Source of the DNA: Candidatus Buchananbacteria bacterium
Lineage (GTDB): Bacteria > Patescibacteriota > Patescibacteriia > 2-01-FULL-39-33
DNA length: 64,000 nt
Assembly (NCBI GenBank): GCA_041666945.1
Contig: JBAYFY010000001.1
Location: 55,813-119,812 of the forward strand
Direction of reading: 5' to 3'
Numbering within the stretch: the stretch's first letter is position 1; each line of letters starts with the position of its first letter. A model generated the notes under the pieces. The model did no database searches, was not told the DNA's origin, and saw only the letters and a list, made by a program, of their open reading frames with translations. A program made the position numbers and the translations under genes. Of the stretch, positions 3,003 through 39,179 are shown piece after piece.

Positions 3003-3044
3003 GGGGTCGTAAAACAAAGGGTATTATTTTAAGCGAAGCATCAA

Positions 3045-3139: not shown

Positions 3140-3209
3140 ATAAAGCCCCTAAAGCCCAGCTTATAAAATAAACAAACTATCTTTATCGGGAATTTTATGG
3201 ACTTTTGAC

Positions 3210-3776: not shown

Positions 3777-3790
3777 ATAAATGCGCAAAG

Positions 3791-5155
3791 TTATTTTTGT
3801 AATTTGTTTTGGCCCCACTTTTTCATCTCAATCTGTATCGGCGTGCCGATGATTTTGAAGGTGTCGCGCAAATTATTCTGCAAAAAACGCAGATAAGAAA
3901 AATGCAAAGTCGCCGGATCATTCACGTTAATGATAAAGCGCGGCGGATTGGTGCCGCCTTGGCGGATGCTGTAAATGTAAGGATTCTTCAATCCTTTGCC
4001 GCGGCTGGGGCGGTGCTGTTTGATTTTTGATTTTAAGAACTTGTCCAAACGCGAATCGGAAATTTCCACTAAGCGCGAGCCAATGATTTCCAAAATGACG
4101 TCTAAGATTTTTTTGCTGCGCAAATTTTCTTTGGCAGAAACGAAAATCAAAGGCGCCCACCACAGATAAGGAAATGACAGGCGGTAGTAATCCACGAATT
4201 TGTCAATCGTTGCCGTGTCTTTGTCGCCGATCAAATCCCATTTGTTGGCCACGATAATCACGGACTTGCCCGATTCTAAAATGGCCTGGGTTATTTTTTT
4301 GTCCTGCACGTCGATTTTTTTGTCCGCTTCGGTGACGAGCACGGCCACATCGCATTCGGCCAGCGCTTTAAGCGATTTGGCAACGGATTTTTTTTCTAAT
4401 CCGCCTTCCACCCTGGCTTTCTTGCGCAGTCCGGCCGTATCAATAATAACGAATTTGCGGTCATGATATTCAAATTCAGTGTCGTGCGCTTCGCGCGTGG
4501 TGTGCGGCAGGGGGCTGACGATGACTCGCTCTTCGCCTAAAATTGAATTAAGCAAAGATGACTTGCCGACGTTGGGCTTGCCTAAGAGGGCGACGCGAAT
4601 CGGTTCTTGTCCGGCTGTTTCAGCGCTTTTTTGCGGCGGGAGTTTTTTGACGATCTCATCCAGCAAGTCGCCGGTGCCGGAACCGGAGGCGGCGGAAACA
4701 AACAACGGCTGGCCTAAGCCCAATCTTTCCACGCCGGCCGAATGCTTTTCATATCTGGCGCTTTCCGCTTTGTTGCCGACCACTAAGATTTTTGAACGCA
4801 GGCCTTGGCGAAGCAAGGATTTGGCCAATTCCCGATCCGACGTCAGGATGCCGGTTTTCAAGTCAATGACAAAAATAATAACTTTAGCCGTTTTAATGGC
4901 TTGTCGGGCTTGCTTAATAATGCCCAGCGCGATTTCCTCGGGCGCGCCTTCAATCAAGTCAACATCCAGCCCGCCGGTGTCTACCAGGGTGAATTTGACG
5001 CCGCGCCACTCGGCTATGCCGATGTTGCGATCGCGCGTAGTGCCGGCAACGGAAGAAACCAGCGCCTTGTTCTGTTCTATCAGGCGGTTAAAGAGAGTGG
5101 ATTTGCCGACATTGGCTCGGCCGACAATGGCTACTTGCGGTAATTTATCAGACAT
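3791..5155 (-). CDS. der: Ribosome-biogenesis GTPase Der/EngA with tandem GTPase domains
   Basis: Two G-domains, GRANVGKSTLFN...DTGG and GKPNVGKSSLLN...DTAG...NKWD, plus a C-terminal KH-like domain. Start taken at MSDKLPQVAIVGR (5155). Confidence 0.92.
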   Translation of the reverse strand: MSDKLPQVAIVGRANVGKSTLFNRLIEQNKALVSSVAGTTRDRNIGIAEWRGVKFTLVDTGGLDVDLIEGAPEEIALGIIKQARQAIKTAKVIIFVIDLKTGILTSDRELAKSLLRQGLRSKILVVGNKAESARYEKHSAGVERLGLGQPLFVSAASGSGTGDLLDEIVKKLPPQKSAETAGQEPIRVALLGKPNVGKSSLLNSILGEERVIVSPLPHTTREAHDTEFEYHDRKFVIIDTAGLRKKARVEGGLEKKSVAKSLKALAECDVAVLVTEADKKIDVQDKKITQAILESGKSVIIVANKWDLIGDKDTATIDKFVDYYRLSFPYLWWAPLIFVSAKENLRSKKILDVILEIIGSRLVEISDSRLDKFLKSKIKQHRPSRGKGLKNPYIYSIRQGGTNPPRFIINVNDPATLHFSYLRFLQNNLRDTFKIIGTPIQIEMKKWGQNKLQK

Positions 5156-9589: not shown

Positions 9590-12500
9590 ATGAGAGTAAA
9601 TAATCATAAATTTTGGTTAAGACATTTCAGCGCCCTGGCTTTAATGCTGGGATTGTTTGTTGTCGGCCAGAAAATCGTTTTGGCGCAATCGGGGGTGATT
9701 TATGAAATAGACGAAACGGTAGTTCAGGCGCAAGCGGCAAAATTTTGCGCGTCAGCCGGATCGGTCGGCGCAGTCGGAGGAGAAGAGGGGCTGGATTGTA
9801 CCAACGAAATATTCGCCAAAACCCAGGCAAAGTTAGCTGAATGCGCCGCGATGTACGCCGCCGCTCAATCCTCTGCCGCCGTTTGCACCGGTCCTCAATC
9901 GCTTACTTGTTTGGCTGAAGTGCAAGTAAAAATCGCCGAATATCATGAGGCCTGCGATTCCTACAGCAAATATTACGTGGAAGGCCAACAGATGGCCGCG
10001 GATTTGGCTAAGGAGGAAAGAGACATAAAAAGCAAAAAAAGAAGAATTCAATTTTTAAACGCCTTAAGCACCTCGGCCTCCAAGGCCTTGGATACTTTGC
10101 TAAGAAGCGTTACGCGCGAAGCCACCAAGATCGCTTTCACCGCGCTTAAGGGTCAGAAGCCGGCTTACATTACGGAAGGTTGGAATGCTTATCTGATTAA
10201 CGCCGCCGATTCGGCTTTAGGCGATTTTGTTGATAACTTCAGTCAGCATTACGGCATGGATATTTGCCAGCCCGATTTGTCGGTGCAGTTATTGATTAAT
10301 GTGCAACTTAGCCAAACCACTCCTCGCGTCAGGTGTACCTTTTCCGAAATTATGAGCAATTGGCAGGAAGCCGTAACCAATCCTGTTTTTCCTTTGGAAT
10401 ACACGCTGGCTTTGCGGCCGGGAGAAAATGATATTACCGCTTCATTGTTAGCTTTGGATTTGCGCGACATGGCGGTCAATCAGCAAGTTACGGCTAAAAC
10501 CTATGAAGCCAGCACCAATCAGGGCTGGTTAAGCAAGGTTACGCTTAATGGCAAGATTTTGACTCCCGGAACGTTACTGCACGACATGATGACCGATGCC
10601 ATGCTGAAGAAGGGCAATTCGCAATATTCCATTACTTGGACGGAAACGGCGATGGCCGTGCCATTTGAATTTATGGACACGGTCGTGGCCGAGTCGTTGG
10701 GATTATTGAAAGAGGGCTTGTTCTCTTTGGAACAATCAGCTTATGGCAATAATTCTTCCAGTGGCGGTAGCAGTAATTTAGCCAGCCAGGGCGCTAACAT
10801 TCTTTCCGGCGCTTTAACCGCTTTATTCAATCCCTCGGCCAGTCCGATAATCACCGAAGGCACTAAAGGCGCAGAGGCCAGAATTAATAATGCCATCTCC
10901 GGCAGCCAGGGTCAGCAAGGAGGGAAAATTGATTTGATAGTTAAGCTTTCCTCTTGCGATGATTCGGCCAAAACCAATCCCGGACCCATGGATTGCGTTA
11001 TGGATGATGCTTTGGCGCAGGCAGTCAAGAGTAAGACCTACGTAATTGATTTGCCTGATCAGATTAAAAATCGCGTTTTTTCTCCTCGATCCGAGCAATC
11101 CAATTCTTTGCAGACAGCCATTCCTTATCGTTCCATTTTGATTTTGCGCCAATATCGCATCGTGCCCGTGGGTTGGGAAGAGGCCGCCGATGTTATCAGG
11201 AACTCCAACAGCAATCGCGAGTACACTTTAGGTGAGTTGATTAATTGCTATGAGGGCATAGGCAAAAACGGTTGCACCACCAACAATTTTAAAGGCATGG
11301 TTGATCCTTACTGGACGCTTAAGGCGTATGAAACCAGCTGCCGCCGCCAGGGTTATGGCGCTCTTAATTTGAATAAAGATGATCAAAGCGGCACTATCGG
11401 ACGTTTGGAATACTGCTCCGATGAACAGCAATGTCTGCAGGAAGACGAAAACGGCGCCTGTTTGGCTTATGGCTATTGCAGTGAAGAGCGCCGTATCTGG
11501 GATTTGGGCAAGACCTGCCCGGCTCGGGCCAATTCTTGCCAGACCTATACTTCGCGCGCCGGTAACGCCGCTTCTTATTTAACCAATACTTTGGATTTTA
11601 GAAATTGCAATGCGCAAGTCGCCGGTTGTCGCTGGTATGCCGTTGATTATAATCCGTCCAGCCAAACTTGGACTAATTTGGGCGGCGGCACGCAGTTTAC
11701 CTCGCCCGAGGTCATCAATCAGGTTATCACTTTCAGCAGAAGCAACAGGGATTGGTGGGTTCAGGCCGGGCATCAAGTCAGCGCCAACTCCCGTTTGCGT
11801 TTGGCCTCGCCCTGCTCTTCGGAGATGTGCAAGTTGGATGCCACCGGTAAAGGTTGCGTTTTCCATCAGACCACCGGCGGAAATTATTGCAGTTTCCAAT
11901 ATTCAGAAGCCGCTGGCGCAACCGGTTACATCCCTCAAGATCCTTCTTGCAATGTCCCGGACAATGGCGTGTCTTGCCAGTTACGCTTGTGCAATGATCC
12001 CAAATTGTTTGCCAATGTTTATGCTGCCGAGATAGAAAATACGCCCAACCTCGGCTTAGAAAGGGCGCTTAACGGCCAGGAAACATGGAAAGCCGCTTCC
12101 TGGACTTTGGCGTTTATTGATAACGGCAATCGCCATTTGCGCGTTACTGCTGACAAACATAGCGGCAACGCTTCGCTTCTCATCAAAACGCTGTACGCGC
12201 CGGCCGATCTTATAAGTTATGAGCCGGCTATACCGGTGGAAAAGAATACCAATTATAATGTCAGATTCTACTATAAAGGATCAATTAACGGCAGTATTAA
12301 TGTGGAAGTTAGGGCCGGTGATGGAGACGGTCTGTCTTTTGGCCAAAACAGTGATCTCTGGCCGTCTTTATTAAACAATTTACAATTAACTGATGGCTCA
12401 ACGGGTTGGCGCGAGGTAAACTTCAATTTTAATTCTGGCGATAACGAACAAGTCGTTCTGGTAGCGCGTAACTCCGCCGGTGTTTACGCTGATTTGTATT

Positions 12501-15500
12501 TGGATGACTTTGAGTTTTATCCCATTAGCACCGCTTGCGGCGCCGGCGCCGTCTCGGTTTTTGTTTCTTCACGCGAAGGCGCGACTGAAATGTATTTTGA
12601 TCGTGATGCCAAAACTTGTTCGGCGGCAAGCGACGGTTGCAGCCAATTTATCCGCACTAAGTCCAACTTAGGCGGCAATATTGTCATTAACGGCGGCTTT
12701 GACGGCGCATTATATGATTGGAGCAATTTAAGTTTGGCGGAAAATACCAAAGCAAAAATCACCCACATTAACAGTTTGGACAGCGCCAGTTCCAATAAAT
12801 CAGTTCAGGTTACCCCCGGCCAATATTATTTTTTGGCTTTTGACGGGTATCAAGCTTCCGCGGGTCAAACAGCGGAAGTTGATGCTTTCTTAAGATTCAA
12901 ATCCAAAGCCAATGCTGTTTTGCAGGTTGCCACTTCTTCGGCCACTTGCGAGTGGGCTCAAGAAAAAGACGGCAGCGTTCCCCAGACCCTGGCCTTGAGG
13001 TTCACTCCCGGTTCTTATGCCACCTCCAGTCGCTTCTTTTGCAAATTCAAAGCGCCGGATAATGCCGTTAAAATGGAATTATGGCTGTCCAGCGGAATTA
13101 GCGGCCAGGAAGCGGTTATTGACAATGTTAAAATTGAAGCGATTTCTTTTAATGCCACTTATCCCAGCAATTACAGCGATTACAATCCGGCAACTCGGCC
13201 GACCGAACAAATATCCTATCTTAAGAAAGCCCCAGCTTACTACAATTGCTATGATGCTTATCCGGAAATCATCGGTTGGCAATGGCCGCAAAATCAACAA
13301 GAATTAACCGGTGTTTTAAAAAATAAAAACGCTAATTGTTCCAATTACTCCGGTGTCTGCACGCCGCAAGAAGTCGGCTGTGAATTATACCGGCCGCTTA
13401 ACGGCGATCCGTCCATCCCGGGTGTGGCGCAGGATTTTGACGCTTGTCCCAAGGAATGCGCCGGCTACCAATTATACAATCAGGAAGAAACCAACTTCAT
13501 TAATCAAACCTTCAAGCAATTTATCGCCGATAAGAAACTTAAAACCTGTTCGGCCAGTTATGCCGGTTGCGATGAGTTCACCAATCTGGATGCTGCCGGC
13601 CAGGGTGGAGAACAAAAAGAATATTATAGCCAGATTCGGGCCTGCCAAAAACCAGCCATTGATGACGGCGCCTATTATACTTGGGAGGGTTCGGATATCA
13701 CCGGTTATCAGCTGGTCGCTTTCAGTTTGAAAAAATCGCAGATTGCCAGCGATCCGGAAATCACCGGCGCCGGCAAAGGTAGCGCTCCTTGCACTAACTT
13801 GGCTCACAATGTTTCCGGTAACGCCATTTGCAGCGATCCGACAGATGCCCGAGGCCCGGGGAATGATCGTTATGATTTTGGCGTCTGCGTCAAAGATGAT
13901 ATGGTTAGCAACCCGGATTGTCGTGAATTGTACGATGTGGACGGCAATATTCATTATCGTTTATTGTCTCGCACTGTCTCCGTTTCCGATAATTGCCATC
14001 CGTACCGCCGCACCATGACCGAGACCTCGCTAACTGAAGCCCAAACCAATTGCACCAGCCATAGCGGTTGGTGGAATGGGAACAATGAATGTATTTACAT
14101 GACCATCCCCGGCCAAGGCAAGACCTGTCCGGCCACGGCTCAAGGATGCCGCGCCTATACCGGCAATCGGGGCAATAATGTTAAGAATGCCATTAACGTG
14201 ATTAATTTCACCGCCAGCAGTACCGCTTTGGATTTGTGGGAAGACGAGAACGGCGGTAAAAACGGCTTGTTCATTTCTTCCGAATCAACTTTCCCCGGCG
14301 GCAATTCCCTGTCTAATAAAGCCGACAATTCCACTATAAACTATCCGATAACCATTGCCAAAAATAAGGCCTACACTTTATCGTTCTGGGCCAAAGGCAA
14401 TGCCGCTTATTATTTTGACAATATCAGATTTGCTGAAAAGAGTGGCGCTAATTGGGATGATAATTCCGCCGCTAACGGTGATAATTATTTTTCCGCCAGC
14501 CGCTTAGTCGGAGAAAATCTGATTAACCCGCGGACGCAATTGACGGCGGAATGGAAGCGTTATGAACTGGGGCCGTTGTTTGTAACTTGGGAGCCCGGCG
14601 ATGGCAATTATTTGGAATTTTCCATGCCGAACGGCCAGATTGTTTATCTGGATAATGTCATCTTAAAAGAAATCACCAATCAAGTTTACGCCATAGAAAA
14701 TTCCTGGTTCACGCCCGTTTCCTGCGATAACAAATTGGATGATCCGGAGGGCAGCCGGGCCAAAGCCGAAAATGCCTGCCAGGACGCCAAATCGGGCCGT
14801 TGCTCGGTTGGCGAGATGCTGGGTTGCGCCGGCTACCTGGATCGCAGTAACAAAACGTCCTATTTAAGATCGTTTGCTTCTTTGTGCCGGCCGGAAGCCG
14901 CCGGTTGCGAGGCCTTGATTGACACGTTCAATTCCAGCGCGCCCCAAGCCCAATCGTTTAACGGGACCAATGGCGCCAATCATGACGATGTCACCGTTGC
15001 CGCCGATACTTTGGTTTATTTGGTTAATGATGACAAATACGCTTGCGCCAAAGGAGATAAGGGTTGCACTCGCTATGGCTTGCCCCTCATAGACAAGTGG
15101 GATGAGATTACCGGCTACCGCGACGTTTATCTTGAGAATGACCCGGATCGTTACTCTACCGATTTGTGCGCCGCGGAAAATCTTTGGTGCGAGGAATGGA
15201 CCGGCAATAATACTCTGATTTACTTTAAAGATCCGCACGGCAAAGTTTGTCAATTCGCTTCCGCCGATAACACCAACAGCTGGGATAAATGGGTCAAGTC
15301 CGATACCGCCGAAACCTGCCCCACCACCTATCAACAAACGCTGGGCTTAAGCTATAAGGCGGCGACAGACAAGTTGCAACCGCTCGGCCCGATTAATTCG
15401 GTGACTTTGCAAGAACCGGCTGATCCGGCTTATAGCGGCTGGGTGGGATCGTGTTCAGCCGAACAATCCGGCTGCAGCGAGTATATTGATCCGTTGGACA

Positions 15501-18500
15501 ATTTGGCGTCCAATCTTATACCGCAACGTTGCGAAGGCAAAAATATTTGCGCGGATGTGTCCATTAAGAAAAACATCCTGTATGTTTTGTCCGATAATAT
15601 CCAAGCGGGAAGCGTAATCTGCAGCGATGTTGATAATTTGAGTAATAATTTTTCCGATGATCTCGGTCATTACCTTTATTTGGCCACGGATAATCTCAAG
15701 TCATTGACTTGCCGTGTAACTTTCCAGACCAAAGACGGCTCGCCGATAGATTTAATCAAAGACAAGATCGGATTGGGCAGCGTTTCTTATGTTTTAAATT
15801 CAAAAGTTACCGGCGGAGATTGCAACGGCCAGGTGGATTACCACAAAGGTTGCATCCTGTTTAATGACCGCAGTCAGTTGGATTACGGCAATTTGATCAA
15901 TAGCGCCACCACCTCCTTGGTTTTCTCCAGCCGTTTGACTCGGGATAATAATTATCCGCAGGGGATTAACGGCCTGGCTCAACCAGTATCGCCAATAGCG
16001 ACGGCCGCCGCCGGGAAACCTAAAGATGCCAATATTATTTTAAAATCTCAGCCCAATCGCGCTTGCGCCAGTTGGCTGACTTGCTCTACTTTTGAAAAGA
16101 AAAAGGAGGGCCAGTCATCGGCTTTGGCCCCGTATTTTTTCAGCGATCAAGATTCTTGTTTGGAAGTCGGCGCTTGCAATTCTTTGGGAGACAACGGCAT
16201 TTGTAATAATTATCTGACTAATGAGGCCGTAAGCAGCGATACTTATTCTCCTTCGTCAGATGCCAATAAATCCGGCTTTTCACGCGTCGGTTATTATTCT
16301 TTTGACGCCATGACGCAGGTCGGCCAATCGTCCAACATAGTTAATGGCAATTTTGAAGAGACCTTTGGCGCCACCACTCAGCCGTTAGGCTGGAAGCTGT
16401 CCACTTATTATTGCGCCAGCAATTCCAATTGCGCCAGCGGCAATCCCGATATTGTTTACAGAAATTGGCAAGCCAGCTACGTTACCGTCGGCCGCGATGG
16501 CACCAAAGCCAAGGATGGCGTGGGATATTTGAAAGTCAATTCCGGCTGGGGGGTTATTTCCGAATCGGTTGATATATTGCCTAAGCAGGAATATTTCTTA
16601 TCCGCCTGGGTTCATACCAAGGATTTGCAAGGACCGGGCGCCGGCGGTCGCTTGCCTTACGCGGAATTGCGTTTGCGTTTCCTTAATTCCAAAGGCCAGC
16701 CACGGCCCGGCTTGGCTACCGTTGACGGCGGTACTTATGAGGGTGATTGGGTTAAGGGTGGAATTATGCAAATACCCACGGGTTTGCCTTGGCAGCAAGT
16801 AGTTGTGCATTTTACCACCGGTGACAATGTTTCTGGCGTGCAATTCGCTTTGTTTAATATGAATCCGGATGGCGAAAAAGGCATAGACAACAGCAAGCTC
16901 GGCGGTTATACCATTTGGGATAATGTTAATCTTAAGCCGTTGCTTAAATCCAATAACGCAGGTTATATTGATCGCACTTGTCGCGTTTACCCCAGTATGA
17001 ACGCCCCGGCTTGCAAATATAATAATGGCAATAATTATTTTTACGGCCAATACGGTTATTGTCTGACGCCGGATCCTGCCAATAGCCAGCAGTGTTTGCA
17101 ATGGTGGCCGGTTGATTCTATTCGCGGCGAGACCTTAAGCGATTTTTCCAGTTATTACAGCGAGCGTTATCCTTTGTATTATTGTTTGGAAAAGAAAACT
17201 ATTACTTTGGACGTGTCTCAATACACTGGCAATTTCGGTTTGTTCGGCGAGGGCGTTAATGAGTCCGGAATGGAATCGTTAAAGTTTGACCAAAGCGCTA
17301 AACAGACCAAAGCCACTTCATTCAATATCAGTCCGACTTGGTCGCCGCTTTTCCGTTATCCTTTCATTTACAAATTCCAATTTGACGGTTTGTTTATCGC
17401 TATCGGCGATACGGCCAGCCATACTTTGTTCGGCGGCGCTCTGTCAGTCGGCATGTGGAAAAATTTGGTTTGCGCCAAGCCGCTGGGCATCATTCCTTTG
17501 CCGGTTTGTTATGTGCCGATCGGCAATAATCTGATTACTTCATCGGATGAAGCGGGGGCCATAACTACTCCGGCTCAAGAGGAAATCCAGGCCTGGATTC
17601 AAAACAACCCCAGTAATCGGGTGTGTGAATTTTCCGTTTTGGCCACCCTGCAGGATTCTGATGCCAATAGTCCGGTCGGTTGCGAATGCGATTCAACAGC
17701 AGAGAAAAACAAGGGCGCAAAATTGAATGATGAAATCAGCGATAGCATCTGCCAAAGCAAAAACAATTGCGGCGCCGGCTCGCCGAACTATAATTGCATT
17801 ACCGCTGATTTGGCCAAGGATTATACTCAACCCATCAGTGATTACACTTATCTTTGCGAAACTACGGCCGAGCCCTGTTCTTGCGCCGCTCCTGACGCCG
17901 AAGGAAAATGCGAAGATTCAGTTCATTGCTCCAATTCGGGCACTAATAAATGCGCCAAAGTGTTTATTGATAGCGGCGCTTCCGCCGGAGCGGCCGGAGT
18001 CGCGCAAACGATTTCCCAGCAAAACCAATCATTAAATGACGCTTATCAGAATTGTTCCGACGAAAATCCCTGCGAAGGTTACGATTCAGGCAGCGGTTTC
18101 TGGTCCAAACTTTGGAGCGGCATTAAACAATTTTTCGGTTCTATTTTCAGCACCTTGGGTAATTTATTGGATATAGTTTTTGCTCCCAATTCGCTTAATT
18201 TGGCCGCTGAAGATTCTTGGGGCGGTTGGGGAGCGGTAGCCATCGCCGGTTACGGCCAATTATTAAGTTTCGTACCGGTTAATATCGTTTTGCATGTGGA
18301 GTTGCCTTGGCATACTGCCAAGAAGTTTGACACTTCCGGAGGGGTTTTGGGCAACTTGGCCGGCATGATTATTCAGCAGGCAGGCGTGGATTTAGGGGTT
18401 TCCACTTTCGGTTTAAGGATTATTACGGATGAGGATTCGGAATTTGGTAAAAATTTAACCGATCCCAATCCCACAGTAACCGGAGACGTTCTGGGGTTTG

Positions 18501-21235
18501 CCAAGTTTTTGGACTTTAATAAGCCGGCCGGCATGGGCGATAAAATGGGCGCCATAACCGTGGTGGGAAATTTTGCCGGCAAACAAGTCGTGGAATATTG
18601 TTCCAAATTAGTCCAAGTTGTCAACTCTGGCGATGAAAATAAGGCCTGGGCCAGTCGCTTATCTCCCGGTTCGCAATATTTGGATTATTTGGGCAAGGAT
18701 TGCGTCAAAGACAGTTCGGTTTCCGGCGACGCCATTCCTTCAGGCGTGGGTATTGTTACGCCCAGCAATGATGAATTATTTTCCGACGGTTGTTTCTATA
18801 GCTCCGCTTATTGCTTGGCGGAAAGCCGTCGTCTTTATAGCGCCTCCGGTCAATTATTGGGCTTTTACCCTTTGAATTTGTGCCAGAATTTTATCGGTAT
18901 TGACGATGGCAGGGGAGTCAATGATCCTGATGATGCCACGCGTAAATTATATTGTGCCGAAGATATTTCCCTGGAGGGCAGACAGCGCACCGCTTATCTT
19001 AATCAAGCCAATGCCTTAAACTGCCAGATATCCTATAATTCCCGTCCCGCTACCGATTCCTCGGATAATGATTATTTTCAGGTTCACAGCTTTGCCAAAA
19101 ATGGATCGCTCACCATGAGTGATTGCCAGATTAATTATAAATACTTCTGCGTCAATGACAGAAGTTTCGGGGCCACAGGAGTTTGGAGATCAAAGAAACT
19201 TATTTATCGCCGTGTTTACGCGGCCGTCGGTTATAATTATACCAGCGATTACAAACCCTTCGGTTCTTTGGTAGCGCCGGAAAATGGCCAATATCCCAAT
19301 GAGTGGGACACGCGTCCTGATTCCAGCGGCAATCAGCCGATTTTCTATGAATTCCCCGGCGGAGAAAATCCGCCCTATCAAGCGCGCGCCGGGCAGAAAT
19401 CAGGCACCTCCATCTATTATATTGATAATTTTTCCGTTAATAAGCCGGATTTATTGCAATTATTCGGCCGTTCTTACAGTTTATGGCAGTGGCAAGCGGA
19501 TAAATCCAGCGATCCCTTGATCGGCCATTATGCCGACGTTACCGGCACGACCGGGTCTAATAACTCGGTTTGGAGTTTGCCCACGTTATATTGTCCCAAT
19601 AATTCGCGTCCGACTAACACCTATCTGTCATTCTGTTTGGTCAAGCCGGAATTCACTTTAGCCAAAGTCAGCCCCACTATTGTCAACAGCATCGGCGCGG
19701 TCAAAGTCAGTTTTAATTCCAAAATTGATCCGGATCAAGTGCCTATCCGTTCTTATGATGTTGATTGGGGCGATGGCAGCATCTCATCTTATGCCGGTTT
19801 GTCTTTGGCCAGCCGTCCTACCTCCTCAAATACTTTTGATTTGTATCATTTCTATAATTATGACAGTTTAGCCAACAAAAATTTGCGGGAATGCGAGACC
19901 AAAGCCGGTGTTCTGGTTTTGGGCGACGGCACGACAGAAACAATTGAAGAGTTCAATGATGATTTGACTCGGGGCGCCTGCCAAGAACCGGTTGGGTCGG
20001 TTCCCAATGCCTCTGCTTTCCATGTGCCGATTAAATTGACTGTGAGAGACAATTGGGCTTCAGCCAATTCAATAACGATTAAGGATTTGATTGTTTTAAG
20101 ACGCGATACTTATGATGCGGAACAGCAAGACGCCATTGCCGAGTGCAAGACGACCAGTTACAGTTCAGCTTTGGGCCAGCAATGCGCCAGCGGCAATCCT
20201 TGCTGTTCAGCCGCTTGTTATTGGCGGCCGGCGGAAGAAGTTAATACGGAGCAATGTTGTGCCACTTATTTCGGCGGTTGGCGCAGGTGCCAGGAGATAG
20301 GCGACGGTTATTGCGATCTGGGCGAACAGGCCACCGATGCCAATGCCGAACATTATAGTCCGGATGATTGCGGCAATATCGTATCCAATGTTACGCCGAT
20401 TGATTATGCCGATGGCATCTGTCCGGAAACCAAGTCATTGGATGATGACATTGATTGTCCTTTAGGCCAAGGCAGTTTGGTTACTTTAGCCCATGACAGT
20501 TATGACTGGCAGGCGTTTATGGCGGTAAATACCGTCGGCGGCGGTTGCGGCGGAACTCCGGATACTCAATTTAATGATGGCAGCGGCGCCAGCAAGGGCA
20601 ATTTTAACTTTAACGCCGATGCCGCTACTTTTTCCGGCTATGCCGCCAGCGGCAATACCGAATACTTTCTTGATTTGGTTTATGCTCCCAATGATACGGA
20701 AAACGACAAACAATTGCGTTACGGCGATATTTTCCGTTTGGTGCCTTGTTTCCAGGGCGTTTACGGTTTCGGTTCCAATAATTGTCCGACAGTATCGTCT
20801 GTTAATCCTGCCACTGCCGTGTCAATTCCCGCAATCAGCCCGATAAAATTGAATATTTACAAAATACAGCCGAATTGGTGGCAGCAATTATGGGGAACAG
20901 ACCCCGGAGATTGGAAAGCTTACCTTGATACTTGCGGAACGGACGGCGATGTTTATTTTAAGGTTTGCCAAAGTCAAGCTTGCAACGGTCCGGCTGATAA
21001 AGTGGGAATCGGCGATCGGGTGGTTTTAAGGATGGTAACCAATTCGGCGCAGGCTGGCGAGCCGCTTGAAGCCAGTTTGTATGATGTGGCTTTGCATGTG
21101 GGCGGAGAGGATAGAGCGCCGACTTTCTTGAATACCGAAGAAGACGCGTCCCGTCCTTACAAGGCGGCTCAAGTGAATGTTTCACCGTCTTTGAATTTTC
21201 GTCTCTGTAACCGTTATGGCAATTGCGGATATTAA
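9590..21235 (+). CDS. Giant (3881 aa) secreted cysteine-rich multidomain surface protein. It has CBM4/9-like jelly-roll modules and a PKD-like motif, and is adhesin-like.
   Basis: Single uninterrupted ORF. N-terminal signal peptide MRVNNHKFWLRHFSALALMLGLFVVGQKIVLAQS. At least 8 recurrences of C-x5-GC-x2-[FYW]. Module starts of the NIVINGGFDG... and NIVNGNFEETFG type. YDVDWGDGS (PKD signature). One internal hydrophobic segment. Confidence 0.85.
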   Translation: MRVNNHKFWLRHFSALALMLGLFVVGQKIVLAQSGVIYEIDETVVQAQAAKFCASAGSVGAVGGEEGLDCTNEIFAKTQAKLAECAAMYAAAQSSAAVCTGPQSLTCLAEVQVKIAEYHEACDSYSKYYVEGQQMAADLAKEERDIKSKKRRIQFLNALSTSASKALDTLLRSVTREATKIAFTALKGQKPAYITEGWNAYLINAADSALGDFVDNFSQHYGMDICQPDLSVQLLINVQLSQTTPRVRCTFSEIMSNWQEAVTNPVFPLEYTLALRPGENDITASLLALDLRDMAVNQQVTAKTYEASTNQGWLSKVTLNGKILTPGTLLHDMMTDAMLKKGNSQYSITWTETAMAVPFEFMDTVVAESLGLLKEGLFSLEQSAYGNNSSSGGSSNLASQGANILSGALTALFNPSASPIITEGTKGAEARINNAISGSQGQQGGKIDLIVKLSSCDDSAKTNPGPMDCVMDDALAQAVKSKTYVIDLPDQIKNRVFSPRSEQSNSLQTAIPYRSILILRQYRIVPVGWEEAADVIRNSNSNREYTLGELINCYEGIGKNGCTTNNFKGMVDPYWTLKAYETSCRRQGYGALNLNKDDQSGTIGRLEYCSDEQQCLQEDENGACLAYGYCSEERRIWDLGKTCPARANSCQTYTSRAGNAASYLTNTLDFRNCNAQVAGCRWYAVDYNPSSQTWTNLGGGTQFTSPEVINQVITFSRSNRDWWVQAGHQVSANSRLRLASPCSSEMCKLDATGKGCVFHQTTGGNYCSFQYSEAAGATGYIPQDPSCNVPDNGVSCQLRLCNDPKLFANVYAAEIENTPNLGLERALNGQETWKAASWTLAFIDNGNRHLRVTADKHSGNASLLIKTLYAPADLISYEPAIPVEKNTNYNVRFYYKGSINGSINVEVRAGDGDGLSFGQNSDLWPSLLNNLQLTDGSTGWREVNFNFNSGDNEQVVLVARNSAGVYADLYLDDFEFYPISTACGAGAVSVFVSSREGATEMYFDRDAKTCSAASDGCSQFIRTKSNLGGNIVINGGFDGALYDWSNLSLAENTKAKITHINSLDSASSNKSVQVTPGQYYFLAFDGYQASAGQTAEVDAFLRFKSKANAVLQVATSSATCEWAQEKDGSVPQTLALRFTPGSYATSSRFFCKFKAPDNAVKMELWLSSGISGQEAVIDNVKIEAISFNATYPSNYSDYNPATRPTEQISYLKKAPAYYNCYDAYPEIIGWQWPQNQQELTGVLKNKNANCSNYSGVCTPQEVGCELYRPLNGDPSIPGVAQDFDACPKECAGYQLYNQEETNFINQTFKQFIADKKLKTCSASYAGCDEFTNLDAAGQGGEQKEYYSQIRACQKPAIDDGAYYTWEGSDITGYQLVAFSLKKSQIASDPEITGAGKGSAPCTNLAHNVSGNAICSDPTDARGPGNDRYDFGVCVKDDMVSNPDCRELYDVDGNIHYRLLSRTVSVSDNCHPYRRTMTETSLTEAQTNCTSHSGWWNGNNECIYMTIPGQGKTCPATAQGCRAYTGNRGNNVKNAINVINFTASSTALDLWEDENGGKNGLFISSESTFPGGNSLSNKADNSTINYPITIAKNKAYTLSFWAKGNAAYYFDNIRFAEKSGANWDDNSAANGDNYFSASRLVGENLINPRTQLTAEWKRYELGPLFVTWEPGDGNYLEFSMPNGQIVYLDNVILKEITNQVYAIENSWFTPVSCDNKLDDPEGSRAKAENACQDAKSGRCSVGEMLGCAGYLDRSNKTSYLRSFASLCRPEAAGCEALIDTFNSSAPQAQSFNGTNGANHDDVTVAADTLVYLVNDDKYACAKGDKGCTRYGLPLIDKWDEITGYRDVYLENDPDRYSTDLCAAENLWCEEWTGNNTLIYFKDPHGKVCQFASADNTNSWDKWVKSDTAETCPTTYQQTLGLSYKAATDKLQPLGPINSVTLQEPADPAYSGWVGSCSAEQSGCSEYIDPLDNLASNLIPQRCEGKNICADVSIKKNILYVLSDNIQAGSVICSDVDNLSNNFSDDLGHYLYLATDNLKSLTCRVTFQTKDGSPIDLIKDKIGLGSVSYVLNSKVTGGDCNGQVDYHKGCILFNDRSQLDYGNLINSATTSLVFSSRLTRDNNYPQGINGLAQPVSPIATAAAGKPKDANIILKSQPNRACASWLTCSTFEKKKEGQSSALAPYFFSDQDSCLEVGACNSLGDNGICNNYLTNEAVSSDTYSPSSDANKSGFSRVGYYSFDAMTQVGQSSNIVNGNFEETFGATTQPLGWKLSTYYCASNSNCASGNPDIVYRNWQASYVTVGRDGTKAKDGVGYLKVNSGWGVISESVDILPKQEYFLSAWVHTKDLQGPGAGGRLPYAELRLRFLNSKGQPRPGLATVDGGTYEGDWVKGGIMQIPTGLPWQQVVVHFTTGDNVSGVQFALFNMNPDGEKGIDNSKLGGYTIWDNVNLKPLLKSNNAGYIDRTCRVYPSMNAPACKYNNGNNYFYGQYGYCLTPDPANSQQCLQWWPVDSIRGETLSDFSSYYSERYPLYYCLEKKTITLDVSQYTGNFGLFGEGVNESGMESLKFDQSAKQTKATSFNISPTWSPLFRYPFIYKFQFDGLFIAIGDTASHTLFGGALSVGMWKNLVCAKPLGIIPLPVCYVPIGNNLITSSDEAGAITTPAQEEIQAWIQNNPSNRVCEFSVLATLQDSDANSPVGCECDSTAEKNKGAKLNDEISDSICQSKNNCGAGSPNYNCITADLAKDYTQPISDYTYLCETTAEPCSCAAPDAEGKCEDSVHCSNSGTNKCAKVFIDSGASAGAAGVAQTISQQNQSLNDAYQNCSDENPCEGYDSGSGFWSKLWSGIKQFFGSIFSTLGNLLDIVFAPNSLNLAAEDSWGGWGAVAIAGYGQLLSFVPVNIVLHVELPWHTAKKFDTSGGVLGNLAGMIIQQAGVDLGVSTFGLRIITDEDSEFGKNLTDPNPTVTGDVLGFAKFLDFNKPAGMGDKMGAITVVGNFAGKQVVEYCSKLVQVVNSGDENKAWASRLSPGSQYLDYLGKDCVKDSSVSGDAIPSGVGIVTPSNDELFSDGCFYSSAYCLAESRRLYSASGQLLGFYPLNLCQNFIGIDDGRGVNDPDDATRKLYCAEDISLEGRQRTAYLNQANALNCQISYNSRPATDSSDNDYFQVHSFAKNGSLTMSDCQINYKYFCVNDRSFGATGVWRSKKLIYRRVYAAVGYNYTSDYKPFGSLVAPENGQYPNEWDTRPDSSGNQPIFYEFPGGENPPYQARAGQKSGTSIYYIDNFSVNKPDLLQLFGRSYSLWQWQADKSSDPLIGHYADVTGTTGSNNSVWSLPTLYCPNNSRPTNTYLSFCLVKPEFTLAKVSPTIVNSIGAVKVSFNSKIDPDQVPIRSYDVDWGDGSISSYAGLSLASRPTSSNTFDLYHFYNYDSLANKNLRECETKAGVLVLGDGTTETIEEFNDDLTRGACQEPVGSVPNASAFHVPIKLTVRDNWASANSITIKDLIVLRRDTYDAEQQDAIAECKTTSYSSALGQQCASGNPCCSAACYWRPAEEVNTEQCCATYFGGWRRCQEIGDGYCDLGEQATDANAEHYSPDDCGNIVSNVTPIDYADGICPETKSLDDDIDCPLGQGSLVTLAHDSYDWQAFMAVNTVGGGCGGTPDTQFNDGSGASKGNFNFNADAATFSGYAASGNTEYFLDLVYAPNDTENDKQLRYGDIFRLVPCFQGVYGFGSNNCPTVSSVNPATAVSIPAISPIKLNIYKIQPNWWQQLWGTDPGDWKAYLDTCGTDGDVYFKVCQSQACNGPADKVGIGDRVVLRMVTNSAQAGEPLEASLYDVALHVGGEDRAPTFLNTEEDASRPYKAAQVNVSPSLNFRLCNRYGNCGY

Positions 21236-26509: not shown

Positions 26510-26953
26510 ATGCAACAAGTGGTTGTGCCGCAATTTTTGGATGTTGAGGATAAAATTATCGGACCGATTTCCGTCCGTCAGTTTGTTGAGTTGATTGTCG
26601 GCGGATTAATTATCGTGATTTTTTATCGCATTTTTGATTTTTCTTTGTTTATCGTCTCCGGTTTGATAGTTTTGGCTATAACTTTAATCGTGGCCTTCGC
26701 CAAAATTAACGGCCAGCCCTTTCATTTATTCCTGCTTAATTTTATCCAGACCTTAAAAAATCCCAAGCTTAAAGTTTGGCGTAAATTTTTCACCCTGGAT
26801 GAAATAAAAGCCGATTTAATTAAGCCCAAAGAAGAAAAACCGCCGCTTCGGATGGCCGCGCGCCAGCCCGTCAGCAAATCCCGCCTGTCGGAAATCGCTT
26901 TGGTCATTGATACCGGCGGTGTCTACCAGGGAGAAAACGGAGTTAATGATTAA
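26510..26953 (+). CDS. PrgI-family / VirB3-like small two-TM T4SS membrane protein
   Basis: MQQVVVPQFLDVEDKIIGPISVRQFVELIVGGLIIVIF...FIVSGLIVLAITLIVAF. This is the typical size and topology, and it sits immediately upstream of VirB4. Confidence 0.55.
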   Translation: MQQVVVPQFLDVEDKIIGPISVRQFVELIVGGLIIVIFYRIFDFSLFIVSGLIVLAITLIVAFAKINGQPFHLFLLNFIQTLKNPKLKVWRKFFTLDEIKADLIKPKEEKPPLRMAARQPVSKSRLSEIALVIDTGGVYQGENGVND

Positions 26954-29659: not shown

Positions 29660-30229
29660 ATGCTTGAAGATCGACGACGATTGGTACTGATTATTTTAGC
29701 TATTGCCATAGTGCTATCTTTAGCAGTAGCTTTATGGTTGATATTCGGACCTCAAAAAAAACCCCAGAATCAACAAACCGGGTCGACACCGCAGGTGGAG
29801 ACAGGTGGCAGCGCCGCTACTTTCGGCTTGCCGGCAGCGCCGCCGGAGCGTTTGGAACAGGAAAACGATTATCCCATCGGCTTAAAGCAATTAGCCATGT
29901 CTTTTGCCGAACGCTATGGCAGTTATTCCACTGACGAACCGCAAAAAAATATCAAGGATTTGGAATCGCTTATGACTGTGACAATGTATAAAACGTCTTT
30001 GGCCCAAACGCCGGTTATCGGCGCGGCCGGGTTTTCCGGTTACTCGGTCAAAGCGCTTTCTGCCGATTTGCAAAGCGTAAAAACCGATTCAGCGGCAGTA
30101 TTAGTCAAAACCCAAGTCACGCAAACCAGCGGCGACGGCATTACGCCCAATGTTTACTATCGCAACTTGCAATTAACTTTTATTAAATCCGGCACAGAAT
30201 GGCTGGTGAATCAGGCGAAATGGCAATAA
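29660..30229 (+). CDS. Small bitopic membrane protein (189 aa), possible VirB8-like/NTF2-like T4SS component
   Basis: N-terminal TM LVLIILAIAIVLSLAVALWLIF plus a ~150-aa extracytoplasmic domain. Its position is right after VirB4. The assignment rests on topology and context only. Confidence 0.5.
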   Translation: MLEDRRRLVLIILAIAIVLSLAVALWLIFGPQKKPQNQQTGSTPQVETGGSAATFGLPAAPPERLEQENDYPIGLKQLAMSFAERYGSYSTDEPQKNIKDLESLMTVTMYKTSLAQTPVIGAAGFSGYSVKALSADLQSVKTDSAAVLVKTQVTQTSGDGITPNVYYRNLQLTFIKSGTEWLVNQAKWQ

Positions 30230-30879
30230 ACAATATTAAAGAACAGATCGCCGATTTGTTGTTTCCGCGTTACTGCCTAAGCTGTCGGCGGGAAGGTGAG
30301 TGGTTGTGCGAGAAGTGCTTGATAACTTTGCCGGTCGGAAAAAGGCAATTGTTTTTGCCGGTCGGTGTTGGTGGAATAGAAGTTACGGCTTTATTTGATT
30401 ATGATCAATTACTGATGGGCAAGATTATCGCCGCCTTAAAATATAATTTTGCCTTTGATCTGTCGCGAACCGTTCATCGTTTGGTGAGTGAAGTAAAATT
30501 GACAGAACAAATAGGCAATGATCCCACAGTTTTAGTTCCAGTGCCCCTGCATCGTCGTCGGTATCTTTGGCGCGGATTTAATCAGGCGGAAATAATCGCA
30601 CAAGCCCTGGCGGCCGCTAATTCTTCTTGGTCAGTTTGTCCGGATTTGCTTAGGCGAGTTATTTACTCTAAGCCGCAAGTCGGACAAAAACAAAAAGATC
30701 GGGTTAGAAGCGTGCAAGGAGTGTTCCGGATCAATTTGGAGCGATTAAGCGATAATTGGAATAAACGTATTATCTTGGTTGATGATGTTTTAACCACGGG
30801 CTCTACTTTAAGCGAATGCGCCGAAGTTTTAAAAACCGCTGGATTCGCTGAAATTAGCGGTTTTGTCTTGGCTACATGA
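30220..30879 (+). CDS. comFC: ComF family protein (ComFC; phosphoribosyltransferase-domain competence protein)
   Basis: N-terminal zinc finger CLSCRREGEWLCEKC and PRTase motif ILVDDVLTTGSTLSE. Start at MAINNIKEQ, overlapping the upstream ORF by 10 nt. Confidence 0.85.
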   Translation: MAINNIKEQIADLLFPRYCLSCRREGEWLCEKCLITLPVGKRQLFLPVGVGGIEVTALFDYDQLLMGKIIAALKYNFAFDLSRTVHRLVSEVKLTEQIGNDPTVLVPVPLHRRRYLWRGFNQAEIIAQALAAANSSWSVCPDLLRRVIYSKPQVGQKQKDRVRSVQGVFRINLERLSDNWNKRIILVDDVLTTGSTLSECAEVLKTAGFAEISGFVLAT

Positions 30880-35643: not shown

Positions 35644-36855
35644 TTATGGAGTGCTGTTGCCGTTATAATAGTTCATTACTTTATTAACATAATCTCTGGT
35701 TTGCCCGTAACCGGCATTTTGGCAGCATTGGTAGCTTAGGTATCCTTTGCAATTTGTGCTGTTGCTGACAGCGCCCTTGCCGCCATTATAGGCCGCCGCC
35801 GCTCGCGTAAGATCTTTTTCGTTGCTATTTTTTACGTATTTAGCGGCCAATTTAATACTCAAATCCACCCCGGCCTGGCCTTTAAGTTCGTCGCAACTTA
35901 CTTTACGTCCGGCCAATCCGCTGGCAGTTGTCGGTAAAATTTGCATAATACCGCAAGCATTTGATTTACTGGTGCCCACATTGGCGTTGCCGCTTGATTC
36001 TTGAGACATGATGGCTTTTAACAGTTTTGGATCCACACCCTCTGCGGCTGCGGCGGCTTTGATTTGCGAATCGTAAGCGTCGCAATTGGAGCAAGTCATT
36101 GGCTTATTTACACCGTCTTTTTTGTAATCCCAAGCCGTACCATTGGGGGCGCTAAGGCAAGGATCGTTCTTATCGGGGGCAATTTGCTTGCCCTGATTTT
36201 TTAAGTTATTTTGTTGAGTTTCCGTGGAGATGCCGGCATTACCAGCAAGAATCACCGGTTCAAATTCCTGTCCGGTTATAACCGTCAAGTTAGGGTTAAT
36301 AATACTAATTAACGTATAAGATAGCAAGGCCAAGGCCAATCCGGCCAAAGCGGAAAAAATTATGGATTTGGCATCGGTTATTTTGCCGCCATCGCCGCGC
36401 GCCAGAAGCCATTTGAATCCGCCCCACATGACCATAATCGTTGCGAGTATGCCAACTGTTCCCAATAATAATGCGTACCAGGTGTTAATGTAGCTGGGCA
36501 GAAGATCCGCATTAACCGGAATTTTAGCGCCGGCCGTAAAAAGGCCGCCGATGGCCACGTTAGGAGTAAAAGTAAAAGACGCTCCACTATCTTGATCAAT
36601 GGTTTTTGTTGAACCAATGTTCACAGTGGTGTCGGAAGGCGTTGATTGGCCCCATTCCGCCGCCCCATTGGGATAGGTGATGGAGCATTGGTGAATACAG
36701 CCGCTGATTTGTTCTTGAGTCCAATCCGCTCCTGAATCGTAACAACCATCAAGGCATTGCTGATATTCAGTTTTGTTGTCGGCCAAAACCGCTGCCGGCA
36801 GCAACAGATTAAAAACCAGAGCAATAGTTAAAAATGTTTTCAGTAAATATCTCAT
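35644..36855 (-). CDS. Secreted Cys-rich protein: two-helix hydrophobic hairpin module fused to a C-terminal SLT lytic transglycosylase domain (VirB1/TraG-like)
   Basis: Signal peptide. Hairpin WYALLLGTVGILATIMVMWGGFKWLLARGDGGKITDAKSIIFSALAGLALALLSYTLISIINP. SLT motif AIMSQESSGNANVGTSKSNACGIMQI...AAYNGG. Confidence 0.7.
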   Translation of the reverse strand: MRYLLKTFLTIALVFNLLLPAAVLADNKTEYQQCLDGCYDSGADWTQEQISGCIHQCSITYPNGAAEWGQSTPSDTTVNIGSTKTIDQDSGASFTFTPNVAIGGLFTAGAKIPVNADLLPSYINTWYALLLGTVGILATIMVMWGGFKWLLARGDGGKITDAKSIIFSALAGLALALLSYTLISIINPNLTVITGQEFEPVILAGNAGISTETQQNNLKNQGKQIAPDKNDPCLSAPNGTAWDYKKDGVNKPMTCSNCDAYDSQIKAAAAAEGVDPKLLKAIMSQESSGNANVGTSKSNACGIMQILPTTASGLAGRKVSCDELKGQAGVDLSIKLAAKYVKNSNEKDLTRAAAAYNGGKGAVSNSTNCKGYLSYQCCQNAGYGQTRDYVNKVMNYYNGNSTP

Positions 36856-36877
36856 AATTATTAATATAAAAAATAAT

Positions 36878-37927
36878 TCAATTTTTCATAATCTCCCATT
36901 CCACCAATTCTTGATTCATACTGGTTAAACGCAAAGGCATATTCATGCCTTCCAACTGATAAACTCCGCCGACAATCAAGTCGGGAGAAATTTTTAAGGT
37001 GTCCATCAGTAACATTTCGTCAGCGGCTAAAGGATTGGTGGAAATGCTGAATTTGTTATTAGCCAGTTGGTTTAATTCCAACGGGCCCAAACTAAGGTTA
37101 TTCAAGGTGGTGCCCAGAGTGGCCAAATCGCTTATTTCTTGAGTTGAGAGCAATTCATATTGCAGGCAAGACCCCATTTCGGCGCTCGCGGGCAGAGTGG
37201 CGGCGTTTTCGCTGTTGCAATATGGTTTATAAATTTCAAAACCGGATTTTTTTAAGGTGGCTCTGACTTTTTGTTCGGTTTCAGGCAGGATTTGTTTGCC
37301 CAGTTGGTCTTGAAAAAGTTTTTTTAATTCCGCATCAGTCAACGGCGTGTAATTTTGCACTATGGGTTCCCGGCCCTCAAAATTTATATTGCTAAGGTCG
37401 GGGTTAACGATGGATATCAAAGTATAAGACAATAAAGCCAAAGCCAGACCGGCCAAAGCGGAAAAAATCATGGATTTGGCATCGGTAATTTTGCCGCTGT
37501 CGCCGCGCGCCAGAAGCCACTTGAATCCGGCCCACATAATCATTATCGTAGCCACAATGCCGATTACCCCCAGCATCAAGTCATACCAGGCCTTGATATA
37601 ATTACCCAATAAATTTTCGTTGACATTACCGCCCATAAAGGCGCCGATAGGCACGTTGAGAATTAAATCTCCGCTTTGGGCCGCAGTGGCGGCATCTGAT
37701 GCTGCTAATTGCGCATTTTGCGCCGCCTCATATTCGTTTTTGCAAAGGGAAAAATCGTCAGCGGCTTGTTGTTGGCAGGCCGTATCATCAGATTCGCAGT
37801 TATCAAGTTGGTCTTGCTGTTGTTTTAAGCAATCATCAATATAATTCGCTTGAGCCGCAATCCAAGGAAAAAGCAAAAGATAAGAGGCAAAATAAATAAT
37901 CGCTAAGATTGGGATTTTTCTGTTCAT
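36878..37927 (-). CDS. Paralogous secreted Cys-rich protein with the same two-helix hairpin module but no SLT domain (candidate VirB2/TrbC-like pilin-type subunit)
   Basis: WYDLMLGVIGIVATIMIMWAGFKWLLARGDSGKITDAKSMIFSALAGLALALLSYTLISIVNP is about 85% identical to the module in 35644-36855. The two modules are also near-identical at the nucleotide level. Confidence 0.65.
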   Translation of the reverse strand: MNRKIPILAIIYFASYLLLFPWIAAQANYIDDCLKQQQDQLDNCESDDTACQQQAADDFSLCKNEYEAAQNAQLAASDAATAAQSGDLILNVPIGAFMGGNVNENLLGNYIKAWYDLMLGVIGIVATIMIMWAGFKWLLARGDSGKITDAKSMIFSALAGLALALLSYTLISIVNPDLSNINFEGREPIVQNYTPLTDAELKKLFQDQLGKQILPETEQKVRATLKKSGFEIYKPYCNSENAATLPASAEMGSCLQYELLSTQEISDLATLGTTLNNLSLGPLELNQLANNKFSISTNPLAADEMLLMDTLKISPDLIVGGVYQLEGMNMPLRLTSMNQELVEWEIMKN

Positions 37928-39162: not shown

Positions 39163-39179
39163 ATATGTGATATTTATTA

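Follow-up and report, generated by a model that had tools for sequence, protein, structure and literature searches.

A giant cysteine-rich secreted protein encoded in the type IV secretion locus of a Candidatus Buchananbacteria genome, a candidate host-contact arm

What is encoded by a single open reading frame (ORF) of 11.6 kb, and why does it stand directly before the genes of a type IV secretion system (T4SS)? This question arises from a stretch of 64,000 nucleotides of a Candidatus Buchananbacteria bacterium (NCBI GenBank assembly GCA_041666945.1, contig JBAYFY010000001.1, positions 55,813 to 119,812 of the forward strand), here called the window. Its positions 9590..21235, on the forward strand, hold one frame of 3,881 codons and a stop, opened by an ATG, the product of which is called the giant below. 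A reading of the bare sequence, the original prediction, had described the giant as a secreted, cysteine-rich surface protein and had proposed that it serves in host-cell adhesion or in delivery coupled to the downstream apparatus. The analysis described here points, with a probability of roughly 0.55, to an extracellular host-contact or adhesion arm of an ABY1-type chromosomal, relaxase-less, monoderm-type T4SS.

Whether the frame is a single gene has to be settled first. Translation of the interval meets no internal stop, and by our own estimate the chance of an open frame of 11.6 kb at 47% GC is <1e-80. Neither GC content nor skew shows anything unusual along the gene. The protein is deposited as MFA6593684.1, under the name 'carbohydrate binding domain-containing protein [Candidatus Buchananbacteria]', and an identical protein is encoded on a 300.5 kb contig (ENA ERZ27249449 k141_1081614), whose k141 name style denotes a short-read assembly. 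An assembly artefact, a set of several genes or an erroneously fused pseudogene might be suspected, because the source contig comes from a short-read assembler and because homologous loci are sometimes broken. In a survey of one genome per GTDB species, 54 loci were recovered from metagenome-assembled genomes (MAGs) of Patescibacteria. A complete single ORF of 2,613-3,883 aa is present in 32 of them, 16 are cut by a contig end and 6 are interrupted. In one interrupted locus, L002 (ERZ21878410 contig_4, 802 kb), the syntenic region at 10001-21190 is split into six ORFs. The tblastn homology across it is continuous and collinear and changes frame exactly at each stop, which amounts to at least four frameshifts; deletion of a single T repairs one junction, and ~12 kb of flanking genes are intact. 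Since the frameshifts lie within continuous homology and no independent starts are seen, L002 is in a derived or erroneous state, and its breaks stem from decay in that lineage or from consensus errors concentrated in this gene; they are not native gene boundaries.

The artefact explanation is further opposed by separately assembled orthologues. Those in L006 (3,883 aa, JBAZRV010000004.1) and P0004 (3,852 aa, on a 958-kb contig) are collinear with the giant from end to end at ~85% identity, including regions that are absent from other relatives, so the chimeric join feared in the original prediction is not seen. Nor is the frame several genes in the relatives: intact homologues are found in contigs of 0.7-1.3 Mb (L027, L043), the names of which suggest long-read assemblies. 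A mis-assembled repeat had also been named as a danger, and self-comparison of the giant revealed no long internal repeats; only a short cysteine motif, C-x6-GC-x2-[YFL], recurs, in ten copies between aa 673 and 2091. Codon-level comparison with L006 gave a dN/dS of 0.09 overall, 0.05 for the N-terminal domain, 0.07 for the core and 0.10-0.12 for the lineage-specific parts, and a value of 0.42 is confined to a fast-evolving stretch of the first 130 aa. By this comparison, purifying selection is acting over the entire length of the protein. Because of the collinear orthologues, the selection and the 32 complete ORFs, the artefact explanation fails for the window and is hardly credible. As judged from these sequence comparisons, the giant is a genuine single gene.

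The features expected of a secreted protein are evident. The giant contains 132 Cys residues, or 3.40%, against a background of 0.83% in the 38 other ORFs of the window, and most Cys residues of its conserved blocks are invariant across the family alignments. In its N-terminus, MRVNNHKFWLRHFSALALMLGLFVVGQKIVLA followed by QSG, the n-region is basic, residues 12-37 form a hydrophobic core, and there is a V-x-A site. The cleavage site was derived from the -3/-1 rule and not from predictor software. The same Sec-type layout is present in each of the 40 family representatives inspected, with Cys contents of 2.5-4.1%. These observations agree with the original prediction of a cysteine-rich protein with a signal peptide. 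They speak differently on its second proposal: because the giant has its own Sec signal peptide, its delivery through the T4SS is unlikely.

How far does the giant extend beyond this genome? A family profile built from the first 660 aa was used in an exhaustive HMMER search of 1.84 billion representatives. It matched 1,627 cluster representatives at E<=1e-3, of which 938 reach E<=1e-30. With few exceptions, these are proteins of 2,300-3,900 aa, matched at an N-terminal position. The giant has the traits that define the family, namely the N-terminal domain of ~550 aa, a secreted protein of >2,300 aa, and a location between a gene for a transmembrane (TM) protein with thrombospondin-type-3 (TSP3)-like repeats and a VirB6-like gene. 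The MAGs of the 54 loci bear the labels Buchananbacteria, Falkowbacteria, Uhrbacteria or 'Parcubacteria group', which we take to be lineages of the GTDB class ABY1. Many third-party annotation (TPA) MAGs among them are labelled 'uncultured Gammaproteobacteria', which is evidently wrong. The original prediction had spoken of a feature recurring in episymbiotic small-genome bacteria; recurrence in Patescibacteria MAGs is borne out, but the phrase is too broad for a family found only under the four labels just given.

When 133 full-length representatives were mapped onto the giant, conserved blocks (aa ~150-700, ~1000-2550 and ~3200-3450) were found to alternate with variable ones (aa ~700-1000, ~2550-3200 and ~3450-3881), and conservation declines from the N-terminus towards the distal end. 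GQxP..TE, C226/C249, R523-x2-P526-x2-W529 and P573-x-W575 are invariant in the N-terminal domain across the family alignments. A homology search found no shorter protein that shares the C-terminal third, and a search of a collection of papers found no description of the family. The family is large and uncurated, and its conserved head domain is novel. An origin from a phage or plasmid was considered and rejected: tblastn found no match to the giant in 72,556 plasmids and 50,697 phages, and PHROGs gave none. With word-indexed homology searches the family is nearly invisible (3, 2 and 0 matches), possibly in part because the 90% cluster containing the giant has as its representative a 43-aa fragment that bears the name 'adenylate kinase family enzyme'; such proteins are thus concealed by an artefact of the database. 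In a Falkowbacteria MAG (QMNH01; L053, L054 and L056), two short contigs carry the tail of a giant followed 1-1.5 kb on by the head of another, and a third carries the usual KsgA, TM protein and start of a giant. The arrangement points to giant genes that are tandem paralogues in that genome.

The domain architecture provides the next part of the answer (Table 1). The N-terminal domain carries the invariant motifs GQKP..TEGW, NAxDxAxG, NPGPTDCV, RIVPVGWE and DPxW, and a Pfam scan of this domain in 25 orthologues gave no match. In an AlphaFold2 (AF2) model of aa 116-710, long low-confidence helices give way to a subdomain modelled with confidence (aa ~445-625), and the predicted local distance difference test (pLDDT) score is 63 overall. 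The sole Pfam-significant domain of the giant is a carbohydrate-binding module (CBM), CBM_4_9 (PF02018; aa 842-957, 12113-12460; 37.3 bits, cut-off 25.9), so that membership of this class comes from the accessory insert alone. Even at E<=1, a Pfam scan of the whole protein added only an overlapping Endotoxin_C match, which is dismissed because it is simply a CBM-like jelly roll. A Cry-toxin-like reading, with a helical domain before Endotoxin_C, was rejected, the N-terminal domain being unlike Cry domain I. No match to the giant was found in NCBIfam or PHROGs, or in a PDB sequence search with the single sequence. The family profile did match PDB sequences, namely a hyaluronate lyase CBM (4d0q, 3e-6), the Cry1Ac protoxin and a laminarinase CBM4.

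The universally conserved core has CBM4/16/22-like jelly rolls starting at aa ~1017 and ~1530. Its AF2 model (aa 1001-2200, from a 27-sequence alignment) is mostly beta with a pLDDT of 66, and Foldseek related it to CBM16, CBM4 and CBM22 structures in the PDB with a probability of 1.0 and a TMt of ~0.6. A third jelly roll, outside this model, probably lies near aa 2240, judging from an NGNFE motif and conservation. Whole-chain analogues of the core are Cry1 protoxins, reelin repeats and Elapor1, in each of which jelly rolls or beta-sandwiches are combined with small Cys-rich modules. Structure prediction with Foldseek had been advised in the original prediction; it yields CBM-like jelly rolls in the core, from models of moderate quality. 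Together with the domain above the Pfam threshold, at least two more domains of the giant are CBM-like by profile and fold. Reelin, which is built of subrepeat, EGF and subrepeat, offers a likeness, as the giant similarly alternates jelly rolls with small disulfide modules. Unlike CBM proteins, the giant has no attached glycoside hydrolase, and its C-x6-GC-x2-[YFL] linker modules match no curated family. Beyond the core, aa ~2551-3200 are absent or unalignable in most relatives. A PKD identity for the W-G-D-G block (aa ~3340-3450) was not upheld by a Pfam scan of 10 orthologous segments, in which the best match was PKD_4 with E = 0.09 in one. Overall, the parts favour reading the giant as an extracellular fibre that is lectin-like, built as beads on a string and probably non-enzymatic, with a conserved head that is novel.

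Could an active domain be hidden in the variable C-terminal regions? A secreted polymorphic toxin, an effector or a polysaccharide-degrading enzyme might be built in this way, given the variability of the distal regions, and the giants of predatory Omnitrophota bear cell-wall-degrading domains (10.1101/2023.11.21.568195). However, the giant contains no enzyme, toxin, phage or defence family in Pfam, NCBIfam and PHROGs scans, no RHS/YD or haemagglutinin repeats and no toxin tip in the same databases, and no catalytic or toxin family among PDB sequences. No shorter protein contains a homologue of the variable regions, and the tail is ~80% conserved between orthologues with a dN/dS of 0.12. The next gene downstream is VirB6-like rather than immunity-like. 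A toxin or enzyme is therefore very improbable.

The link to secretion comes from the locus. The upstream 355-aa gene stops 5 nt before the ATG of the giant, the giant ends 30 nt before the VirB6/TrbL-like gene, and PrgI, TrsD and VirB4 all lie within 6.5 kb of its end, as expected from the original prediction of a gene immediately upstream of a T4SS core. From its sequence, the 355-aa protein has Asp-rich TSP3-like Ca-binding repeats and a Ser/Thr-rich ectodomain; its matches to MtsD/CglD (TSP3) are weak, and its orthologues are labelled 'TSP3_bac (faint)'. A homologue stands directly upstream of the giant at almost all surveyed loci, with a spacing of 0-12 nt at each locus examined. The 1,079-aa protein of the window itself has only a weak pLS20_p028 match. 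Its orthologues match PF04610 TrbL (26.7 bits, cut-off 25.9; also E 5e-4), and orthology across loci is supported by tblastn (1e-38 to 1e-127). A VirB6-like gene is present at every locus that reaches at least ~1.5 kb past the giant stop.

The conserved order is KsgA, single-pass TM protein, giant, VirB6-like protein, two unknowns, PrgI, TrsD, VirB4 and then comF/recG/radA, and within the T4SS operon the giant gene comes second. From KsgA to VirB4 the order is shared by the window, L061, L063, L064 and L065, the last of which represents a distant Falkowbacteria-type subfamily. Genes of similar size occupy the positions of the 172- and 469-aa genes in all four of these relatives, and in L064 and L065 Pfam makes no call for the gene at the PrgI position. 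Among the six sampled loci that reach far enough downstream, five have giant, VirB6-like, PrgI, TrsD and VirB4 in this order (PrgI Pfam-called in three), the exception being L060; the predicted association with a T4SS is thus a recurrent one. With VirB4 and a separate TrsD, PrgI, the VirB6-like protein and comF/recG/radA/ksgA, the locus is a Patescibacteria-type (MPF-FATA-like) chromosomal T4SS of ABY1 flavour. The pairing of TrsD with VirB4 is typical of Patescibacteria (PMC12102498), and the window agrees with the ABY1 T4SS context of comF, recG, radA and ksgA described by Quinonero-Coronel et al. 2025 (PMC12102498). The ORFs scanned, which leave out some small ones, revealed neither a relaxase nor a coupling protein.

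The adjacency might nevertheless be a conserved neighbourhood only, the giant being a general surface protein (an adhesin, a biofilm protein, or a fibre associated with the envelope or S-layer) that acts independently of the T4SS. The conserved block does include the housekeeping genes FemAB, MFS and KsgA, and L060 lacks a nearby VirB4. Large Cys-rich surface proteins without a T4SS link are known in other episymbionts (PMC6792436), and the essential lectin-like adhesins of Southlakia are treated apart from its T4SS cluster (PMC10633639). On the other hand, the giant lies on the T4SS strand with near-zero gaps to both the upstream membrane gene and the downstream VirB6-like gene, the pair of giant and VirB6-like gene is retained even in the distant L060/L065 subfamily, and the order survives the insertion of unrelated genes. 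Independence from the T4SS is less likely than a host-contact arm.

In the preferred reading, that of a host-contact arm, the giant would be exported by Sec via its cleavable N-terminal signal peptide and would fold outside the cell as a long, presumably disulfide-stapled, non-enzymatic fibre. The conserved N-terminal part would be held near the membrane translocon, for which two proteins are meant: the VirB6-like one and the TSP3-like one, which is single-pass and tightly coupled. The lectin-like jelly rolls and the variable distal part would bind glycans of the host surface, and the giant would in this way hold the T4SS channel against the host cell. The proposal of an adhesion or host-contact arm follows from this putative arrangement, with the head near the translocon and the lectin-like and distal parts reaching the host surface. 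Adhesion itself is plausible, given that jelly rolls of CBM-like type are predicted and that the distal regions vary.

Several points weigh against this proposal. A scan of the giant for anchoring motifs found none (no LPXTG (LP.T[GAN]), lipobox or C-terminal TM anchor), and the N-terminal domain has no detectable similarity to any T4SS component. The AF2 models are of moderate confidence only, and a CBM-like fold is no proof of carbohydrate binding. L060, a distant relative, keeps the pair of giant and VirB6-like gene with no VirB4 within 7 kb, and unrelated genes sit between the giant and VirB4 in L061 and L065. As the synteny also spans KsgA, FemAB and MFS, part of it may be a frozen chromosomal backbone. 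Finally, the giant may be dispensable in some lineages, given the frameshifts in L002 and five other genomes.

Is the giant a part of the machine itself? It might be part of the channel, a single-polypeptide conduit or stalk that replaces the missing outer complex and carries, for example, DNA or nucleotides between host and epibiont. The invariant operon position and the universally conserved N-terminal domain (dN/dS 0.05) are in keeping with this idea, as is the flanking of the locus by competence and recombination genes (comF, dprA, recG, radA); import of DNA or nucleotides has been proposed for the T4SS of Patescibacteria (PMC11665869). However, no sign of a tube-forming or oligomeric fold is seen, the core resembles beads-on-a-string lectin modules, the distal 40% of the giant is not conserved, and VirB2-like pilins are present that could build a conduit. 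A conducting role is distinctly unlikely. A bolder reading makes the giant a hitherto unrecognised core extracellular subunit of the T4SS: a single-chain, disulfide-stapled stalk of 2,600-3,900 residues, with its N-terminal domain docked on the extended VirB6-like protein, which bridges epibiont and host and is required for whatever is moved. In view of dprA, comF, recG and radA on its flanks, that cargo would possibly be DNA or nucleotides of the host. This reading is unlikely as well; if true, it would mean a type IV secretion system whose architecture forms a new class.

Known systems offer several points of comparison. PrgB/aggregation substance and other adhesins of MPF-FATA T4SSs are alike in being Sec-exported surface proteins encoded in a Gram-positive-type T4SS cluster with a presumed partner-holding role. 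In contrast to PrgB, with which it shares no sequence or Pfam similarity, the giant is without LPXTG, ~3x larger and Cys-rich, and its locus is chromosomal with no relaxase or coupling protein among the ORFs scanned. No PrgB/GbpC-type adhesin domain was found in the giant with Pfam and NCBIfam. A phylum-wide survey of Patescibacteria T4SSs detected no adhesins and none that is PrgB-like (PMC12102498). The role of the Patescibacteria T4SS has been described as completely unknown (PMC11665869).

TraN, the mating-pair-stabilisation protein of F-type plasmids, is also encoded with a T4SS, exported by Sec to the surface and strongly Cys-rich; its disulfides are conserved, and its receptor-binding part varies. 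It is an outer-membrane protein of ~600 aa in diderms. A whole-protein scan (E<=1) found no Pfam match of the giant to the TraN family model, and the resemblance is one of function, by analogy alone. The Helicobacter Cag T4SS protein CagY and the extended VirB6 proteins found in Rickettsiales are likewise very large proteins of T4SS loci with surface-exposed or hydrophilic extensions. They are enlarged core subunits (VirB10 and VirB6, respectively), whereas the giant is a separate gene beside a separate VirB6-like gene that is itself extended. According to a FEMS review, the role of the extended VirB6 domains is not known.

Giants of other contact-living bacteria, those of Omnitrophota (West-Roberts et al. 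preprint, 10.1101/2023.11.21.568195) and Giant1-5 of Apilactobacillus kunkeei, are also extracellular proteins of several thousand residues encoded beside secretion or pilus genes. They differ in phylum, domains and partner systems (type II secretion or pilus-like), and are much larger or repeat-rich, whereas the giant of the window lacks long repeats. A further parallel is found within the same phylum: the T4SS of Southlakia epibionticum (Saccharibacteria) is likewise monoderm, relaxase-less and equipped with VirB2-like pilins, and epibiosis there requires surface proteins that bind polysaccharides. In Saccharibacteria, the T4SS and several polysaccharide-binding adhesins are essential for epibiotic growth (PMC10633639). 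No homologue of the giant is described in the Southlakia T4SS cluster, which was compared by its description.

Table 1. Features of the giant gene and of its surroundings, in window coordinates
Feature	Position	Strand	Remarks
DprA	1816-2904	-	upstream of T4SS genes
Upstream partner gene, 355 aa	8517..9584	+	cytoplasmic N-terminus, one TM helix at aa 44-70
Giant: Sec-type signal peptide	9590..9688 (aa 1-33)	+	predicted cleavage between VLA and QS
Giant: family-defining N-terminal domain	9977..11689 (aa ~130-700)	+	first half helical; second half (aa ~445-625) alpha/beta with Cys-rich hairpin
Giant: accessory insert	11690..12589 (aa ~700-1000)	+	in ~30% of relatives (conservation map)
Giant: universally conserved core	12590..17239 (aa ~1001-2550)	+	jelly rolls spaced by small disulfide-rich modules
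Giant: lineage-variable region	17240..19189 (aa ~2551-3200)	+	Gly/Ser/Cys-rich, no annotation; dN/dS 0.10
Giant: third conserved block	19190..19939 (aa ~3201-3450)	+	PFG..V.P, W.W and W-G-D-G motifs
Giant: Cys-rich C-terminal tail	19940..21232 (aa ~3451-3881)	+	common only to closest orthologues; dN/dS 0.12
VirB6/TrbL-like polytopic protein, 1,079 aa	21266..24505	+	~8 hydrophobic segments at aa 7-441, charged C-terminal domain of ~640 aa
Two unannotated genes, 172 and 469 aa	24509..26507	+	no TM, no Cys
PrgI family (VirB3-like) membrane protein	26510..26953	+	PF12666, 34.6 bits (cut-off 27)
TrsD/TraC-like	27002-27685	+	NCBIfam TrsD, 5.8e-11
VirB4 ATPase	27690-29594	+	NCBIfam conju_CD1110, 355.8 bits (cut-off 325); Pfam P-loop_TraG
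189-aa single-TM protein, then ComF	29660..30879 (ComF 30199-30879)	+	TM profile, family scan
tRNA genes Ser-GCT, Ser-TGA, Arg-GCG	30938-31031, 31411-31499, 32119-32193	+	between ComF and RecG-like gene
RecG-like helicase	32236-34314		assigned by reading the sequence, not by family search
RadA-like	34306-35637	-	family scan
Two VirB2-like T4SS_pilin proteins	35644..37927	-	PF18895; one fused to an SLT lytic transglycosylase (PF01464, VirB1-like)

The remaining neighbours add some detail to the apparatus. The 189-aa single-TM protein is a possible VirB8 analogue; a 185-aa gene 3' of VirB4 in L064 is likened to it by size alone, and PDB sequence searches with the 189-aa and 355-aa neighbours of the giant gave no match. 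The T4SS_pilin proteins are Cys-rich too and lie ~6 kb past VirB4 on the opposite strand, one of them being a VirB2-VirB1 fusion. The presence of DprA, ComF, RecG-like and RadA genes around the T4SS hints at DNA handling. Promoter and terminator scans gave results not above those of shuffled controls.

In relatives, small genes (GIY-YIG, MetK, ORF6N and 23S_rRNA_IVP) are inserted at differing points of the operon, at 26538-28491 in L061, 18881-19513 and 23692-24048 in L065, and 14191-14562 in L060; the gene order is undisturbed by them. Beside the pilin genes of the window, two unannotated genes (37924-39842, - strand) have weak PHROG matches to a Zot-like toxin (E 1e-3) and an endolysin (E 8e-3), and may be further T4SS or pilus accessory proteins. 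Farther on, adjacent genes of 885 and 566 aa (40277-44618, + strand) have no family match, and the second contains 17 Cys (3.0%). A look-up of the 885-aa ORF at 40277 gave no database record. Both lie directly upstream of PilM and a type IV pilus cluster (44.7-56 kb); their products may be further extracellular proteins associated with the pilus.

What these results mean for the biology of the group can be put as follows. To our knowledge, no member of ABY1 has been cultivated, so the host-contact idea is not yet open to direct genetics. The largest gene of the genome, 11.6 kb in what we assume to be about 1 Mb, is a fixed member of a T4SS operon in one major branch of the Patescibacteria. Its product is secreted, lectin-like and Cys-rich, stands for >900 sequence clusters and has one domain unlike anything curated or solved. 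For host recognition by the T4SS, the giant thus offers a concrete candidate part. Its N-terminal domain provides a marker for annotating proteins that number in the thousands and at present go by 'hypothetical' or 'carbohydrate binding domain-containing', and its variable distal regions could help to predict host range.

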